The translations under genes and the position numbers were made by a program. Shown here piece by piece: positions 4,859 to 11,997 of a DNA stretch of 24,000 nt (position 1 is its first letter; each line of letters starts with the position of its first letter). Source of the stretch: Moraxellaceae bacterium (GTDB lineage: Bacteria > Pseudomonadota > Gammaproteobacteria > Pseudomonadales > Moraxellaceae). Location of the stretch: assembly GCA_030646295.1 (NCBI GenBank), contig JAUSND010000012.1, positions 39,723-63,722 of the forward strand. Reading direction: 5' to 3'. Under the pieces are notes generated by a model. The model did not search any database. It had not been told where the DNA came from and was given only the letters and a program-made list of their open reading frames with translations.

Positions 4859-5132
4859 GCGGTAGGGCGCGTAGTTGCAGAAGGAGGAATGGCGCGGATA
4901 AGGGCCCGCTAAGCCAGCCTGCGGATTCTACGCCGACCGGTGCATCGGGGGCAGTGGTTCTGGAACAGTGGGCCTGGGGCCTGCCATGCCTCAGGCAGGC
5001 ATTCATGCCGCGTTTCTCCGGCAATGCGCACCGACTGTCGCCGCCACGGTAATCCTGTCACCCAGCCAGCCCGGGATGCCACGCCGGCCCGCAGACCTGC
5101 TTAACTGAACCCAAAGCCTCCGGAGTGTGGCG

Positions 5133-7565
5133 ATGATCTGCCGTTGCCGTAGTGATACAGGATGTACCCGGCTCTGCCACCGCCTCACGGCAGGCGTTGT
5201 GCTATGGCTTTGCCTGCTGGCAACGTCGGCCTTTGCGGCACCCCGCGTGTTGCTGCTCAACTCCTACCATCCGCAATTCGCCTGGGCGGCGCAGCTGACA
5301 CTCGGCGTGCAGCAGGCACTGGCCGGCCACATTCCCGAAGAAAACCTGCACATCGAATTTCTGGACGGCCGCCGCATGGTCGACGATCCCGCCTACCTGG
5401 CCCAGCTGAAAATTCTGCTCAAGCATAAATACGCCCGCTTTCCACCCGACGTCATCATCAGCAGTGACGACTACGCCTACGACCTGCTGTTGTCATCACG
5501 CGACGAGCTCTTCGGCCCCGACACACCCGTCGTCTTCTGCGGCGTGAATGTGTTTGATCCACTACGACTCAAGGGCAAAAAACATTTCACCGGCCTGCTT
5601 GAAGGCATGGAGATCGCAGGCAACCTGAACCTCATCCAGCAGATGCAGCCCGATGTGCAACGCATCATCATGCTCACTGATCGCACCACCTTCGGTGCAC
5701 GCATGGCGTCCGAGGCCCGACGCATGATGCAGCAGCGCGCCGGCAAGCCGGGGCCGCGTGTAGAACTCTGGGACGACTTCACTCAGGACGAACTGTGGCA
5801 ACGACTGCGGCAATTGCCGCCACGCTCGGCCATTCTCATGCTGGCCATCCACCAGACACGCGATAACCGCTACTTTTCCTTTGCCGAACACCTGCCACTG
5901 GTGTCCCGCAACGGTCACGCACCGGTCTACGGCATGTGGGGCGCCCTCATGATCGGCAACGGCGCCATCGGCGGACTGATGAACGACCCCCACCAGCACG
6001 GACATGCCGCCGCCAAGGTGGCACTCGATATTCTGGCCGGAACGCCGGCCGATGCCATTGCGATCCTGCCGCAATCGCAATTCAGTCCGCAGTTTGATTA
6101 TCGCGAACTGCAACGCTTCCGCATCAGCATGCAACGTCTGCCCGCCGGCAGCAGGCTGTTTTTCCGCCCCCCCAGTTTTTACGAAACCCACCGGCCCGTG
6201 TTGCTTGGCAGCCTTGCCGTTGTTGTCGGCCTGCTGGTCATCATCGGCCTGCTGGTCAATCGCAACCGGCGTCGCACCCATGTCACCGAACTGCTCGCCG
6301 ACGCCAACCGCCAGCTTGAGGTTCGCGTGCAAGAACGCACCGCCGAGCTGAGCGAAGCCAAGGCCAGTTCCGAAGCCGCAAACGCAGCCAAAAGCCTGTT
6401 CCTGGCCACCATGAGCCACGAAATCCGCACGCCCATGAACGGCGTCATCGGCCTGCTGGAATTGCTGCAGCAGGAATCACTGCCGCCGGAGCAGCAAGAA
6501 ATGCTGCACGCCGCCAACGACTCGGCCCACACACTGATGCAAATCCTCGACGACATCCTGGATTTCTCGCGCATCGAGTCCGGCCGCATGCAACTGGACT
6601 GCATTCCCTTCAATCCGGACGGTGTCGCGCGCAGCGTGATCATGACGCTGAAGCCTGTTGCTGCCACCAAAGGCCTGCGCCTGTCGTATGCCAACGGTCA
6701 TGCACCGTTGCCCGCCTGCATGGGTGATCCCGGTCGAATACGGCAAGTCCTGCAGAATCTGGTCAACAACGCCATCAAGTTCACGCCCGCCACGCCGGCC
6801 AGCAATGAAGACGAAGTGGTGATCAGCATCGCGGTGACCGGACAACAGGAAGACCGCATCACGCTCGTGATCAGCGTCAGGGACCGCGGCATCGGCATGA
6901 ATGACGAGGCGAGGGCGCAACTCTTCCAGCCCTTTACCCAGGCCGACAGCTCCATCACGCGCCGCTTTGGCGGCAGCGGCCTCGGACTGTCGATCTGCAA
7001 ACGCCTGGTCGACCTCATGGGCGGCAGCATCGAGGTACACAGCCAGCCGGACAAGGGCAGCGAATTCCGCATCCAGCTCACGCTGCCGCTGGCCGACAGT
7101 GCCGAGCATGTGGAGCAGCACTTTTCCTCCAGTGCCGTCATCGCCCGCCAGCCCATGGAAGATCTGGCCGAGGCCGAAGCGCAGGGCCGGCTCATCCTGC
7201 TTGCCGAAGACAATCCCGTTAACCAGCAGGTCGCCATTCGCCAGCTGGCATGGCTGGGTCATCCTTGTCTGCTTGCCACCAACGGCATCGAAGCACTCGC
7301 CCTGTGGCAGCAACATCGCATTGGCCTGATCCTGAGTGACGTGCAAATGCCGGACATGGATGGCCTGAGCCTGACACGGGAAATCCGTCGGCGCGAAAGT
7401 GAAAACCAGTTACCGCACACGCCGATTGTTGCCATGACCGCCAGCGCACTCACCGACGATACCGCGCATTGCCTGCGCGCCGGCATGGACGACTTTCTGG
7501 CCAAACCGGTTGAGCTCGGCGTGCTCAGGCAACGCCTGGACCGGTGGTTGCCACCACCGAAATAA
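5133..7565 (+). CDS. hybrid sensor histidine kinase/response regulator with a periplasmic ABC-substrate-binding-like sensor domain
   Basis: The ORF begins at GTG 5127, but the ATG at 5133 has GGAG at 5122-5125. There is a signal/TM segment, then a periplasmic domain ([14 protein letters not shown]...) and the TM helix [18 protein letters not shown]. Kinase motifs follow: H-box [11 protein letters not shown], then [16 protein letters not shown] and [11 protein letters not shown]. The C-terminal receiver reads [10 protein letters not shown]...[10 protein letters not shown]...AMTA...K. Confidence 0.9.
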
Positions 7566-7687: not shown

Positions 7688-8008
7688 TTAGCGGGGCAAT
7701 GATTTTCCCGGCCGATTGCGCAACGCAGTTTTCGCGTTTTGTGTTGCCGGACGCGGAAACTTTTCATGCAGGAACGAGAGCAGGGCGCTGTGATCATGCA
7801 GCCGGTGCATGGCTGCACGTACCCGCTTGTAATCATGCTTGACCGCGCTCAGCGCGCTGGTTGTATCGCTACGTAAGTGAGTGAGCGCCGTCGTTGCATC
7901 ACTGCGGAAATGCTGCACCTTTTCCGACAACTGCTGCAGGGCGTCGCCCTCGGTGAACGGCTGCGGTTGTCCCGCCGCCTTGTGCTGCGTGATCTTTCTG
8001 GATTCCAT
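7688..8008 (-). CDS. small hypothetical protein (106 aa) with an internal RSDxTxAL duplication
   Basis: The ATG at 8008 is preceded by AAGGTGG 6 nt upstream, and a terminator lies downstream. The protein carries RSDATTALTHL and RSDTTSALSAV as a tandem motif. I recognise no family. Confidence 0.5.
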   Translation of the reverse strand: MESRKITQHKAAGQPQPFTEGDALQQLSEKVQHFRSDATTALTHLRSDTTSALSAVKHDYKRVRAAMHRLHDHSALLSFLHEKFPRPATQNAKTALRNRPGKSLPR

Positions 8009-8320
8009 GGTGGCCACCTTCAAGAATCAGTGCGTGCCAGATACGCATCAGTCTCGTCACGACTCCGGGCACTGATGAGTGTCCCGTTCCAGGGTCGGCT
8101 GTCGAGCCCCGGCGAGGCGAATGCACGCGCCCGGCGACATACGTTGCGGTCTGATCGGAGGGCGTGATGAAACCGTACTCCTACCGGCCTGTCGCTTCAA
8201 TGACAACAACCCCATTCCATTAAGCCAGTCTGCACCAAAGGACCCGTGCATTAGGCGAGTGCCATCTAAGGAAAATAGTCCGGTGCGTGCAACCAGCAAC
8301 GACAAGGGCGATCAGGCCAA

Positions 8321-9232
8321 TCAGTTCGCCTGCCGGCAATCCCCCAGAACCAGACCGCCCGGCTGCATGTCGATAACCGTGCCGGTTAGCGTGGCGAAGT
8401 TGCCTTCCGACAGGGTGAGGAAGAACTTGGCCTGGTCTTTGGCCAGTGCGCATTTGATCTGGTAGTTGAGGTCGTTGAACTGGGTTTCCTGACGCACGCC
8501 GAGCAGGCCGCGGGTTTGCGTGACCAGATAATTCACGGCCATGTCGCCGTGCAGGGGCGAGCCGGTAACGGTGTAGATCTGCCCGTCCACGCGGTATTTG
8601 CGGCCGATGTATTTGGCGCGCACCGAGGCAAAGGCCTCTTCGTATTCACCCGATGATGCCGATACACCGGTGCCGATCAGGGCACGGCTCAACTGGCCCT
8701 TGGCCGCCACGGGCGACAGCGCCTTTTTCACCACCTTGCCGATTTCGGCGGAGAGCTTTTCGGCCTTGGCATCCGTTACCTTGTTTATGCCGGTTTTCTC
8801 GCGCGCGGCAGCGGCGATGGCGTCGCCTTCCTTGCCGGTCTTGAGCTTTGCCAGCAGCGAACAGAATTCCGTGCGCACGGCGGCGGCTTCGGTTTTCTGG
8901 CCACGGGCCAGCTTGGTGCTGATGCTTACCTTGCCCGACTTGTCGGCCGTGGCCAGCATCACGATGGCAGGATTGTTGCTGTCCTGGATGAAATACAGCT
9001 CGCCGGCACCACCCTTGATGAGCTCGCCACCCACTTTGTAGCCGCCATCCAGCGCAATCTGCTGCAACTGCCCCAGCGCACTCTGCGCACTCAGGCCTTG
9101 CACCTTCACCTGCCCGGAAAAGAACAGGCCGTTACGGGGATCACCCACTGACTGAAAACCGTCTTCGCAGCTCTGCGCCAGCGCAAAACCCGAAAGCATC
9201 ACAAGACCTGCTGCGAAAACTGCCTTATTCAT
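8321..9232 (-). CDS. secreted/periplasmic protein of unknown function (303 aa)
   Basis: Sec signal MNKAVFAAGLVMLSGFALA-QS. The mature part is Lys/Ala-rich and soluble. Host-like GC content. Confidence 0.8.
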   Translation of the reverse strand: MNKAVFAAGLVMLSGFALAQSCEDGFQSVGDPRNGLFFSGQVKVQGLSAQSALGQLQQIALDGGYKVGGELIKGGAGELYFIQDSNNPAIVMLATADKSGKVSISTKLARGQKTEAAAVRTEFCSLLAKLKTGKEGDAIAAAAREKTGINKVTDAKAEKLSAEIGKVVKKALSPVAAKGQLSRALIGTGVSASSGEYEEAFASVRAKYIGRKYRVDGQIYTVTGSPLHGDMAVNYLVTQTRGLLGVRQETQFNDLNYQIKCALAKDQAKFFLTLSEGNFATLTGTVIDMQPGGLVLGDCRQAN

Positions 9233-9306
9233 GGGTATCCACCTGATTCCTGCCTATACGTTCGGCACAAATTCTGCCTGCCGCCACGCTGGCCTGTCCA
9301 GCCAAA

Positions 9307-9380
9307 GCGGGCACCGTGCAATGGTACTACCCTAGCTTCCCAAGCTAGAGCCGTGGGTTCGATTCCCATCGCCCGCTCCA
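9307..9380 (+). tRNA. tRNA-Gly(CCC)-like gene with a degenerate 5' third (possible pseudo-tRNA)
   Basis: A 74-nt cloverleaf can be drawn, with anticodon loop ttCCCaa, T-arm gtggg-ttcgatt-cccat and an encoded CCA. Three features look defective: C at position 8, an A7.C66 acceptor mismatch, and a D-stem C13.C22 mismatch plus a G.U pair. The 3' 53 nt are identical to the tRNA at 11766-11839. Confidence 0.5.
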
Positions 9381-9457
9381 CTGTTTTACAAGGGTTTTAA
9401 CCATACAGGCCCCTCGTCCTGAGGGCACTGTTATGACTTTTGTGGCCCCTTCTAGCC
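9328..9457. repeat. left arm of a 130-bp perfect inverted repeat (3' 53 nt of the tRNA plus 77 nt of 3' flank)
   Basis: I checked by hand, base by base, that this arm is the exact reverse complement of 11689-11818. Imperfect similarity continues outward to about 9281 (blocks cgctggc and gtccagcc) and more weakly inward (cgcacaagga at 9496-9505 versus 11667-11676). Confidence 0.92.
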
Positions 9458-9540
9458 ATACTTCCTTTCTTCACCATTTCCCCTAATGAGTTGCTCGCAC
9501 AAGGATTACTAGCGCCGCCATGAAATGTGATTGGAGGAAA

Positions 9541-10518: not shown

Positions 10519-11422
10519 AAAGGCGCTCCGGATACCCCTTAAGGATGTAATTTCTAAATATTGCCATTAAGTCATGAGAGTCAAATCTGTAATAATAATA
10601 GGTCTTTCCCAGCCTGCTTCTAAAAAGTCCGTTCCCATCTCTCTCGATAGACGCGAATGCAGACAGAATTGCCAAATGCTGCCTTAGCTTGAAATCGCCA
10701 TCTCCAAATATAATTTTTAAAATCTCGATGAGTTCTTTGTATGTGATTGGGCCAGTAAAATACACAAGATCATGAACAAACATTACGGATATTTTTGTGA
10801 ATTTTTGGGATGGATTGCAAGATACTAAATCAATGGGGGATCGCTTCGTTTTGATTGGGTCTTTTAGTAAATTAAAAATTCCCAAGAAGGTGTCGCCTAT
10901 TGCATCAAGGTGATCTACCCCATCAGGGCTCATCTTGTAGTGAATGATTTTATTTTTCCCTGCAGCCTCCTCAATGGCCTGAATGGGGCCTAGGTTGATA
11001 AAGGATTTTGCTGCTTTAAATTTATCATCATTGATTACTATTAGTTTTTTTCTTAAATCGTTATGAGAGAACGCGCCCAACTCCGTGTAAGAGCTCGGGC
11101 TCTCAAGGACGATAATGATATGGTCTGCGAACTGGGTTATTTCATGTTCCACATCAAGAATATTTTCTTTGTGCCCCTCATCTTGAAGGGTGGAAAATAC
11201 TCTCTCCGCGAGAAAGAACTGGGCATACTCTAAATGCGATTTGGAGAACCCAATCAGCGCTTTTCTGCGCTCAGAGATGGTGCCATCTGATTTGTTTGCG
11301 CCACAAAGGAATACAAACTTAGAGACCATTGCGGGAAGGTATACATTGGATCCCGAAACAGCCGCCTTTAGGCTCAATATTCCATCGCGCAATAGTTTCT
11401 TTTTCTTTATTTCATAAAGCAT
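10508..11422 (-). CDS. retron effector candidate: N-terminal nucleoside 2-deoxyribosyltransferase-like (NDT/TIR-like) domain plus C-terminal winged-helix-like domain (304 aa)
   Basis: The N-terminal half shows the NDT-like pattern: FVFLCGA (aa 36-42), then ADHIIIVLESPSSYTELGAF (aa 99-118, acidic residue plus Gly after a beta-strand). The C-terminal part (ITYKELIEILK...LRQHLAILSAFASIERDG) looks like a wHTH. The gene lies directly upstream of the RT and is translationally coupled to it (ATGCGCATTGA overlap), as with rcaT-rrtT in retron Sen2. The call rests on motifs only; no alignment was run. Confidence 0.6.
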   Translation of the reverse strand: MLYEIKKKKLLRDGILSLKAAVSGSNVYLPAMVSKFVFLCGANKSDGTISERRKALIGFSKSHLEYAQFFLAERVFSTLQDEGHKENILDVEHEITQFADHIIIVLESPSSYTELGAFSHNDLRKKLIVINDDKFKAAKSFINLGPIQAIEEAAGKNKIIHYKMSPDGVDHLDAIGDTFLGIFNLLKDPIKTKRSPIDLVSCNPSQKFTKISVMFVHDLVYFTGPITYKELIEILKIIFGDGDFKLRQHLAILSAFASIERDGNGLFRSRLGKTYYYYRFDSHDLMAIFRNYILKGYPERLYAH

Positions 11423-11582
11423 CTTAAAGCTTGCCTACTTAAGCATGCGTTTCTTCCGGACATGGAAGCCGCTGACTAGCGTCTTCCATGTCCGGAAGAA
11501 ACGCTAGAAAGCTAAAAAATTAAGGCAGAATGTGACTCACATCCCGATGGGCTCTCACCCATAATTGCTAGGCAATTTGATA
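11420..11582 (-). ncRNA. candidate retron msr-msd non-coding RNA
   Basis: On the minus strand, a1 TTGCCTA (11575-11569) is followed by G11568 in a uAGc context. Its complement a2 TAGGCAA lies at 11437-11431, and the pairing extends to about 14 bp with two bulges. Between them are two short msr-like hairpins (atggg/cccat and atgtg/cacat). A 58-nt hairpin at 11447-11504 has a 22-bp perfect stem, a 4-bp inner stem and a tetraloop, and no T-run follows it. The boundaries are a model, not measured. Confidence 0.45.
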
Positions 11583-11688
11583 ATACATAATGTTGCCACA
11601 AGGAAGAAGGTACGCCTGAAAGTAATAGCAATTACTTTGCGTGCACCGAGCCGTGCCGCAAGCAATTCCTTGTGCGGAGGGAAACTAG

Positions 11689-11818
11689 GGCTAGAAGGGG
11701 CCACAAAAGTCATAACAGTGCCCTCAGGACGAGGGGCCTGTATGGTTAAAACCCTTGTAAAACAGTGGAGCGGGCGATGGGAATCGAACCCACGGCTCTA
11801 GCTTGGGAAGCTAGGGTA
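11689..11818. repeat. right arm of the 130-bp perfect inverted repeat
   Basis: Exact reverse complement of 9328-9457. Degenerate similarity continues outward to about 11870. Confidence 0.92.
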
Positions 11819-11839
11819 TTACCATTATACGACGCCCGC
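11766..11839 (-). tRNA. tRNA-Gly (anticodon CCC), apparently intact
   Basis: The reverse complement reads gcgggcg-tc-gtat-aatggta-atac-c-ctagc-ttCCCaa-gctag-agcc-gtggg-ttcgatt-cccat-cgcccgc-t-cca. All stems pair, U8 is present and CCA is encoded. The acceptor stem, anticodon loop and T-loop closely match E. coli glyU-type tRNA-Gly(CCC). Confidence 0.9.
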
Positions 11840-11997
11840 TTAGGCTGGACTGATGCCAGCGGGTGCATGGTACGGATTCCGGCGCCGTTCGTCGACCTCC
11901 CCAAACATCTTTAGCCACCCTGCATCCAGATGCCCGCTGGCTCCGTACAGATACTCAGGCAGACAGGAGTTTGCCCCTATCTCCGGAGATCACGCTC

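Follow-up and report, generated by a model that had tools for sequence, protein, structure and literature searches.

The minus strand of the window, by which we mean the whole 24,000-nucleotide (nt) stretch of Moraxellaceae DNA analysed here, carries at positions 11575–11431 a 145-nt structured RNA that is very probably the msr-msd non-coding RNA (ncRNA) of a type II-A1 (St85/Sen2-family) retron, forming the 5′ leader of an operon for an effector and a reverse transcriptase (RT). An original prediction, made from the letters of this DNA, had proposed an msr-msd with paired inverted repeats a1 and a2, a branching guanosine and a long msd hairpin. The observation in sequence is confirmed, the positions given for a1, a2, G11568 in cctaGca and the hairpins all being correct on the minus strand, and comparison with homologous loci supports the model as essentially right, apart from small corrections described below. 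The comparison uses an alignment, A2, of 45 distinct sequences (44 homologs and the window), and a covariance model, R1, of 43 homologs, from which the window was left out. The elements of the RNA, in 5′ to 3′ order, are:

11575–11569, minus strand: inverted repeat a1, UUGCCUA, the 5′ end of msr; complementary to 11437–11431, with covariation in 45 loci.
11568, minus strand: predicted branching guanosine, the putative source of the priming 2′-OH, in an invariant UAGC; placed by alignment A2 and by the R1 alignment to the retron ncRNAs of Ec78 and Ec86.
11562–11547, minus strand: msr stem-loop 1 (SL1), AUGGGU-GAGA-GCCCAU; from fold and covariation.
11546–11526, minus strand: msr stem-loop 2 (SL2), CGGGAUGUG-AGU-CACAUUCUG, 9 base pairs (bp) and a triloop; from fold and covariation.
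11525–11514, minus strand: single-stranded linker CCUUAAUUUUUU, 3′ of SL2, with a conserved U-run; by analogy with the 10-nt L1 linker of Eco7 and the Ec86 stop site, the expected site of reverse-transcription termination and of the RNA–DNA duplex.
11515–11439, minus strand: predicted msd template, placed from the Eco7 and Ec86 anchors.
11504–11447, minus strand: msd hairpin, 58 nt; from inverted-repeat search, fold and covariation.
11438, minus strand: the ‘opposing G’, which faces the branching G at the end of the a1/a2 stem; in a GUA invariant in 45 loci, and placed by the R1 alignment to Ec78 and Ec86.
11437–11431, minus strand: inverted repeat a2, UAGGCAA; the complement of a1, covarying with it, 8 nt upstream of the effector ATG.

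The two msr hairpins that had been drawn as atggg/cccat and atgtg/cacat are present and covary, but both are longer than proposed: SL1 has 6 bp, including a U·G closing pair, beneath a GNRA-type GAGA tetraloop, and SL2 has 9 bp. The layout proposed for the msd hairpin is borne out, with a 22-bp perfect stem, an A·G mismatch, 4 bp and the tetraloop AGUC (27-nt arms, 96% complementary); its 3′ end lies 24 nt from the effector ATG at 11422. The tip of this hairpin, GCUAGUCAGC (11471–11480), is conserved in sequence; its AGUCA recurs in the loop region of SL2 (GAGUCAC, 11539–11533). The region folds much better than shuffled sequences do (z = −7.8 over 186 nt and −6.7 over 301 nt, with 0 shuffles as good).

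The a1/a2 stem of the window consists of 7 contiguous bp followed by an A·G mismatch at the eighth position. Taken alone, this match is unremarkable, because five further perfect 7–9-nt inverted pairs occur in the same 411-nt region, and it becomes significant only through comparison across loci. In minimum-free-energy (MFE) folds of transcripts of 186 nt and 301 nt, a local hairpin, AAUUGC-CUA-GCAAUU, takes the place of a1/a2, and this preference, together with the chance-level match, meant that a single sequence could not settle the model. The local hairpin was rejected as a candidate: it shows no covariation and is outcompeted by a1/a2 with plausible transcript ends, the MFE structure for a transcript start at −7 to −12 forming a1/a2 with pair probabilities of 0.9–1.0.

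Homologous loci were collected in two ways. A one-genome-per-species scan with an RT alignment yielded 20 loci, with the upstream region complete in 14 and cut inside in 2 more, and a pattern taken from the unpaired conserved part of the RNA yielded 37 metagenome loci, 35 of them with complete RNA, the other two being a chance match and the rearranged locus L077, which is without a2 and carries the hairpin tip as its reverse complement (GCTGACTAGC). All 44 homologous ncRNAs lie at the same place, upstream of the effector. The contig of the closest RT relative, P0002 (86% identical), ends inside the effector gene, so it offers no ncRNA to compare. A pattern scan of viral contigs gave 22 matches, all by chance; the ncRNA had no blastn match in E. 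coli genomes or plasmids; among phages and plasmids, tblastn with the RT brought up distant RTs only, at ≤36% identity; and a literature search for the conserved ncRNA strings returned unrelated papers only.

Compensatory conservation in homologous loci had been named beforehand as a check on the model, and a1/a2, both msr hairpins and the msd hairpin are all compensated. With a 51-pair model on A2, 94.2% of cells are paired, compared with 34–43% when the 3′ partners are slid by 1–3 columns; both partners change in 41 of the 51 pairs, and none of 500 shuffles attains the observed values. The a1/a2 pairing of 11575–11569 with 11437–11431 holds up in the same way: over 9 pairs, 90.6% of cells are paired against 23–53% when slid, and 7 of the 9 pairs are changed on both sides. 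Examples of compensation are GGCCACTGTATA / TATACAGTGGCC in L052, TCACCTA/TAGGTGA in L009, TAGCCTA/TAGGCTA in L003 and CGCCTA/TAGGCG in L010. SL1 (helix 2) is 98.9% paired, with changes on both sides in 5 of its 6 pairs; SL2 (helix 3) is 100% paired, with ACACG/CGUGU variants in L009, L018, L061 and L063; and the msd hairpin (helices 4 and 5) has changes on both sides in 25 of 26 pairs.

Set among these covarying helices are positions that do not change. The UAGC containing G11568 (A2 columns T15, A16, G17 and C18) is invariant in the 45 sequences, as is the GUA made up of the opposing G and the start of a2 (G147, U148 and A149); the U-run of the linker (T67–T71) is invariant in the family, and the hairpin tip GCUAGUCAGC (columns 122–131) is nearly invariant in 45 loci, above a stem that covaries freely. 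A further 5-bp helix can be drawn between UUUAG (11512–11516) and UUAAG (11438–11442), which would stack on a1/a2 and close the msd domain. This helix at the base of msd (UUUAG/xUAAG) is 91.8% paired in the family with zero compensatory change, and is thus conserved and unproven. A CUUAA/UUAAG helix was set aside, showing no covariation.

The original prediction had also proposed a covariance model built from homologous loci. R1, made in this way, matched the window on the minus strand at 11428–11579, over its full length, with 161.2 bits (E = 1.3e-41); elsewhere in the 24 kb it found only the reverse strand of the palindromic msd hairpin. R1 also detected the ncRNA just upstream of the RT in the Ec78 (Retron-Eco7) locus taken from an E. 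coli genome (38.3 bits, E = 3e-9), aligning G11568 with G1379 of that locus and G11438 with G1506, 127 nt after the branching G. A distance of 127 nt separates the G of UUUAGCG from the G of CAAGUAAAG in the Ec78 locus, with U at −49 and A at −47. These positions are exactly those of the cryo-EM numbering of Retron-Eco7, with its branching G0, opposing G127, U(−49) and A(−47) (PMC12673091). The window ncRNA may belong to the shared IA/IIA1 class: as a proxy, R1, a model of the window’s family, detects the Ec78 ncRNA (type I-A), which Mestre 2020 grouped in that class.

R1 also picked up the Ec86 ncRNA, a sequence present at 100% identity in 48 E. coli genomes, at 30.9 bits (E = 4e-7), and the correspondences are unchanged, G11568 aligning to the G of CCUUAGCG and G11438 to the G of GACGUAAGGG. 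The resemblance of cctaGca to the Ec86 branch site, pointed out in the original prediction, is therefore one between homologous ncRNAs, since R1 aligns the two branch sites. The choice of G11568 as branching G is likewise supported: its UAGC is invariant and it aligns with the branching G of both Ec78 and Ec86, its chemical role in the window being a predicted one.

The same data bear on whether these hairpins could instead control transcription, as a terminator of tRNA-Gly or as an attenuator or leader of the effector gene. SL2 with the following CCUUAAUUUUUU (11514–11546) does fit an intrinsic-terminator-like pattern, in a place that coincides with the expected reverse-transcription stop; the RNA occupies the 5′ leader, with 8 nt between it and the effector ATG; and deletions in the msd of Retron-Sen2 lower the levels of its toxin RcaT, so that a regulatory side-effect is plausible. 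Yet no T-run follows the long hairpin, a1 and a2 covary although they pair at long range, the ncRNA is always linked to a retron RT, and the Ec78 and Ec86 ncRNAs, to which it is homologous, are proven templates. Rfam at its gathering score finds two tRNAs only, with no retron or cis-regulatory family in the window, and at relaxed thresholds gives spurious microRNA-hairpin matches only. We consider a control element highly improbable, in agreement with the earlier argument that a long stem without a T-run is msd and not a terminator. A coupling between the fold of the msr-msd RNA and translation of the effector is possible, given that a2 ends 8 nt before the effector ATG and that the Sen2 msd deletions lower the toxin.

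Next to the RNA lies a sequence that could serve as its promoter:

11585–11580, minus strand: best candidate −10 hexamer, TATTAT, by direct reading, at −17 to −12 from the branching G; an alternative, cATTAT, lies at 11592–11587.

In 31 of the 45 sequences a TAnnnT hexamer begins 20 or 21 nt before the branching G and is preceded, about 17 nt upstream, by TTGAAA; a consensus promoter scan at the window ncRNA found no full promoter and no convincing −35. Judged from this family promoter, the RNA begins about 8 nt ahead of the branching G, at the start of a1. In the window the −10 sits 3 nt nearer to the branching G than in the family pattern, which fits its shorter, 7-bp stem; across the family a1/a2 is contiguous and of 7–9 bp (up to 12 bp in L052), the eighth pair being present in 36 of 45 and the ninth in 25 of 44. 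A bulged extension of a1/a2 to about 14 bp, part of the original prediction, can be drawn but is not supported: it finds no backing in the comparison, and its bases 11582–11576 overlap TATTAT and would pair with the effector start codon.

These features raise the possibility of a decayed or silent retron that has inherited the fold but is poorly transcribed or no longer makes multicopy single-stranded DNA (msDNA). The absence of a good −35, a −10 shifted relative to the family pattern, an a1/a2 stem of just 7 bp with an A·G mismatch at the eighth position, the location of the cassette inside an odd inverted duplication (see below) and the visible disruption of the relatives L002, L010 and L077 would all fit such a copy. 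On the other side, both open reading frames (ORFs) are intact and full-length against homologs, every invariant position of the ncRNA is kept in a full-length R1 match at 161 bits, read-through from the tRNA-Gly promoter is possible, and the −10 is displaced by 3 nt in step with the shortened stem, which suggests a coherent 5′ end rather than decay. This is the only rival with some weight, given the weak promoter and the minimal stem, and we regard it as decidedly unlikely.

Several points weigh against our assignment of an msr-msd RNA. Many of the 45 sequences are close relatives, so that cell counts such as the 94.2% overstate the number of independent events, the number of compensated pairs and the slid controls being more robust. 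The strong −35/−10 pair of most homologs is missing in the window, and its 7-bp a1/a2 stem is at the short end of the family range. The St85 ncRNA was compared by description, not by direct alignment, and the termination site is extrapolated from retrons with different linker sequences. The msDNA, the transcript end and the phenotype are predictions, at this locus and at all 44 homologs.

The anchoring on solved retrons allows a prediction of the msDNA that the window RNA would template. In Eco7 the G facing the branching G is left uncopied, and the template starts one base 5′ of that G (PMC12673091); in Ec86, likewise, one uncopied G separates the template from a2. By this reasoning the first template base here would be A11439, not G11438; G11438 is probably not copied, and the msDNA probably starts at A11439 as 5′-TTAAGCATGCG. 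The cDNA start had been placed just 5′ of a2, which is nearly right, but the probable start is one base further in, giving TTAAGC... and not CTTAAGC.... Synthesis in Eco7 stops 10 nt after SL2 (PMC12673091), and the Ec86 stop site falls on window position 11517 in the R1 alignment. Together these suggest termination at 11515–11517 and an msDNA of probably 77–79 nt, 5′-TTAAGCATGCG...GCTAGAAAGCTAA-3′, the 3′ end being uncertain. The 58-nt hairpin would be flanked by a 5′ tail of 8 nt and, on its other side, by about 11 nt with AGCTAA at the end. The DNAs of St85 and Vmi1 are 85 nt long, so this predicted length may be off by several nt.

In both Sen2 and Eco7 the first four DNA bases are cut off by exonuclease VII (ExoVII), leaving an unbranched product (Eco7: PMC12673091). 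The mature msDNA of the window may likewise be unbranched after ExoVII loss of TTAA; a negative debranching result would then be compatible with the msr-msd model.

The fold, in which pairing of a1 with a2 sets the invariant G11568 opposite the invariant G11438, and its homology come from the present analysis, and the steps that would follow from them are modelled on Sen2, Eco7 and Eco1. The RT would bind SL2 and the linker after it, SL2 being bound by the RT thumb domain in Eco7 and Eco1 (PMC12673091), would prime DNA synthesis from the 2′-OH of G11568, would copy the template from A11439 toward the RNA 5′ end, through the hairpin, and would stop about 10 nt after SL2, near 11515–11517. The 77–79-nt msDNA would stay attached to the msr by a short RNA–DNA duplex while RNase H cleared the template, and ExoVII may then trim the first 4 nt (TTAA), freeing the DNA from the branch. 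Within its type, Sen2 is the one retron known to be a tripartite toxin–antitoxin system that requires RNase H and ExoVII; by analogy, the RT–msDNA complex would keep the NDT-like toxin inactive, and phage interference with the msDNA would free the toxin, leading to growth arrest (abortive infection).

The minus-strand order of the locus is tRNA-Gly(CCC) at 11839–11766, a 190-nt spacer, the structured RNA, a 304-amino-acid ORF and a 325-amino-acid ORF. Its genes, together with a repeat on the far side, are:

11839–11766, minus strand: tRNA-Gly(CCC), by ARAGORN and Rfam (tRNA, 63.5 bits); 190 nt upstream of a1 on the same strand, at the island border.
11422–10508, minus strand: effector gene, 304 amino acids, NDT-like, of the RcaT / St85 family; by NCBIfam NF038232 and PADLOC NDT_II-A.
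10518–9541, minus strand: retron RT, 325 amino acids; by NCBIfam NF038233 and PADLOC RT_II-A; overlaps the effector gene by 11 nt.
9296–9474, plus strand: left arm of an inverted repeat, a degenerate tRNA-Gly-like copy plus 94 nt, paired with 11672–11850; Rfam tRNA, 40 bits, at 9307–9377.

Both proteins belong to the St85 family of retron components. The effector matches NF038232 (‘retron St85 family effector’) at 192 bits against a cutoff of 100, over residues 26–283, its best PADLOC match is NDT_II-A (E = 2e-46), and its N-terminal 130 amino acids are similar to the Ec86 effector in the PDB (65 bits). The RT matches NF038233 (‘retron St85 family RT’) at 307 bits against a cutoff of 235, with RT_II-A as its best PADLOC match (E = 2e-93) and Ec78, Ec83 and Ec86 as its nearest PDB relatives. 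It contains the retron RT motifs NAKNH (residue 84, of the NAxxH class), YADD (187, catalytic) and VTG (239), the NAxxH, VTG and YADD motifs being named in Mestre 2020. An NCBI protein from a Moraxellaceae metagenome-assembled genome (MAG), 100% identical to this RT, is already called ‘retron St85 family RT’, so that the retron as such was annotated before, the ncRNA itself being unannotated there. The order of ncRNA, effector and RT is the one reported for Sen2 and Vmi1, in line with type II-A1, and the 2.2-kb retron block has 41–51% GC within a genome of 60–65% GC.

The cassette is bracketed by a 179-nt inverted repeat (9296–9474 / 11672–11850), 93% complementary, each arm of which consists of a tRNA-Gly(CCC)-like gene and 94 nt of its 3′ flank. 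A run of 129 nt, beginning in the anticodon stem and reaching ...CTTCTAGCC, is identical in the two arms, and weak similarity (GCACAAGGAaTTrCT) extends inward from the arms. The left tRNA-like copy (9307–9377) has a degenerate 5′ third with mismatches in the acceptor and D stems, and was missed by ARAGORN. No integrase or transposase was found near the inverted repeat, and the arrangement is not the usual direct-repeat att signature of tRNA-targeted islands. Just outside the left arm, a minus-strand ORF of 303 amino acids (8321–9232) has a signal-like N-terminus (MNKAVFAAGLVMLSGFALAQ) and no match in Pfam, NCBIfam or PADLOC.

Related loci show other surroundings. In L019, from an Arenicellales MAG, a homologous cassette of 2185 nt lies between inverted copies of an IS256-family insertion sequence (IS) (Transposase_mut; 96%, 1531–2925 / 5111–6505), an arrangement that resembles a composite transposon. 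About 1.6 kb lies between effector and RT in L002 (2375–4000), about 0.85 kb is inserted in the effector gene of L010 (2835–3687), and L001 (2025–5027), the closest RT relative, has IS66 genes just downstream of the RT. A tRNA is close to the cassette in 2 of 30 related loci scanned, a tRNA-Arg about 170 nt after the RT in L004 (5116–5191) and a tRNA-Met about 530 nt before the ncRNA in L013 (2324–2400); in L078 a tRNA-Val (8002–8078) is about 4 kb away. These cases give a weak hint of tRNA-adjacent insertion of cassettes. The idea that retron cassettes are generally associated with inverted repeats around them was considered and dropped, the arms in L019 being IS256 copies and the other loci checked having no bracketing repeats.

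Repeats around cassettes bear on a further reading, in which the palindromes are mobile-element ends or repeats, of the repetitive extragenic palindromic, miniature inverted-repeat transposable element or IS type, unrelated to the RT. The 179-nt repeat of the window and the IS256 copies of L019 do bracket their cassettes, but the hairpin is internal to the cassette rather than terminal, each locus has a single copy of it at a constant spacing from the effector gene, and R1 finds no second full-length copy in the 24-kb window; we give this reading the slightest chance of all.

Retrons of the St85/Sen2 type are a known bacterial anti-phage system, and the present locus is an ordinary one in an unusual host. 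Known retron biology is unchanged by the result. What the msr-msd assignment adds is a base-level annotation of an ncRNA missed by genome pipelines, with its branching G, opposing G, template limits and predicted msDNA, and also an alignment of 45 members together with a covariance model, both representing a marine and freshwater branch of St85-type retrons. These could aid the choice of compact retrons for DNA-writing tools. Two more far-reaching ideas, that the hairpin tip is a specific recognition element of this retron sub-family and, separately, that the inverted tRNA-Gly duplication is an undescribed route of cassette capture or inversion, seem to us unlikely; in the former, the tip decamer GCUAGUCAGC (GCTGACTAGC in DNA) could be the site that the effector, the RT or a phage trigger recognises.

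Among known retrons, Retron-Eco1 (Ec86, type II-A3) shares with the window a related effector N-terminal NDT-like domain including ESPxSxTELGAFS, a similar branch site (CCUUAGCG in Ec86, GCCUAGCA in the window) and a single G between template and a2. It differs in its effector, ncRNA, RT order, in a 12-bp a1/a2 stem and in a more distant RT (90 bits); Ec86 msDNA, moreover, remains branched. In an E. coli locus (L083, 1591–3639) PGAP labels the Ec86 (Eco1) proteins ‘retron St85 family’ too, and the last 14 nt of the effector gene are shared with the Ec86 ncRNA.

Retron-Eco7 (Ec78, type I-A) has the closest solved RT (142 bits). R1 aligns its a1/a2 stem, UAGC branch site, opposing G, SL1 and msd stem with those of the window, the branching and opposing G are 127 nt apart there and 130 nt apart here, and the 3′ flank CGCnUnCUnAAGUA is found in both. 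The SL2 and hairpin-tip sequences differ, and Eco7 encodes the ATPase PtuA and the nuclease PtuB downstream of its RT, whereas the window has an NDT-like protein between ncRNA and RT.

The closest class is that of Retron-Sen2 (St85, Salmonella Typhimurium) and Retron-Vmi1 (Vm85, Vibrio mimicus), type II-A1 in Mestre et al. 2020. The window differs from these in its host, a Moraxellaceae MAG of 60–65% GC, and its RT is only moderately similar to the St85 model (307 bits). St85 was not among the top matches of either protein search. The branching G is at RNA position 12 in Vmi1 and Yf79 and is predicted at about 8–13 here; the DNA is 85 nt in St85 and Vmi1 against a predicted 77–79 nt; and the first four DNA bases are predicted to be TTAA, not TAGA. 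Shared with Sen2 and Vmi1 are the succession of msr-msd, an effector of about 300–320 amino acids and RT, a promoter a few bp upstream of the msr, and membership of the St85 protein families, both window proteins scoring above the NCBIfam cutoffs. As in Vmi1, there are two RNA stem-loops in the msr and a single mismatch in the DNA stem, and the tripartite toxin–antitoxin logic of Sen2 would be expected here by homology.

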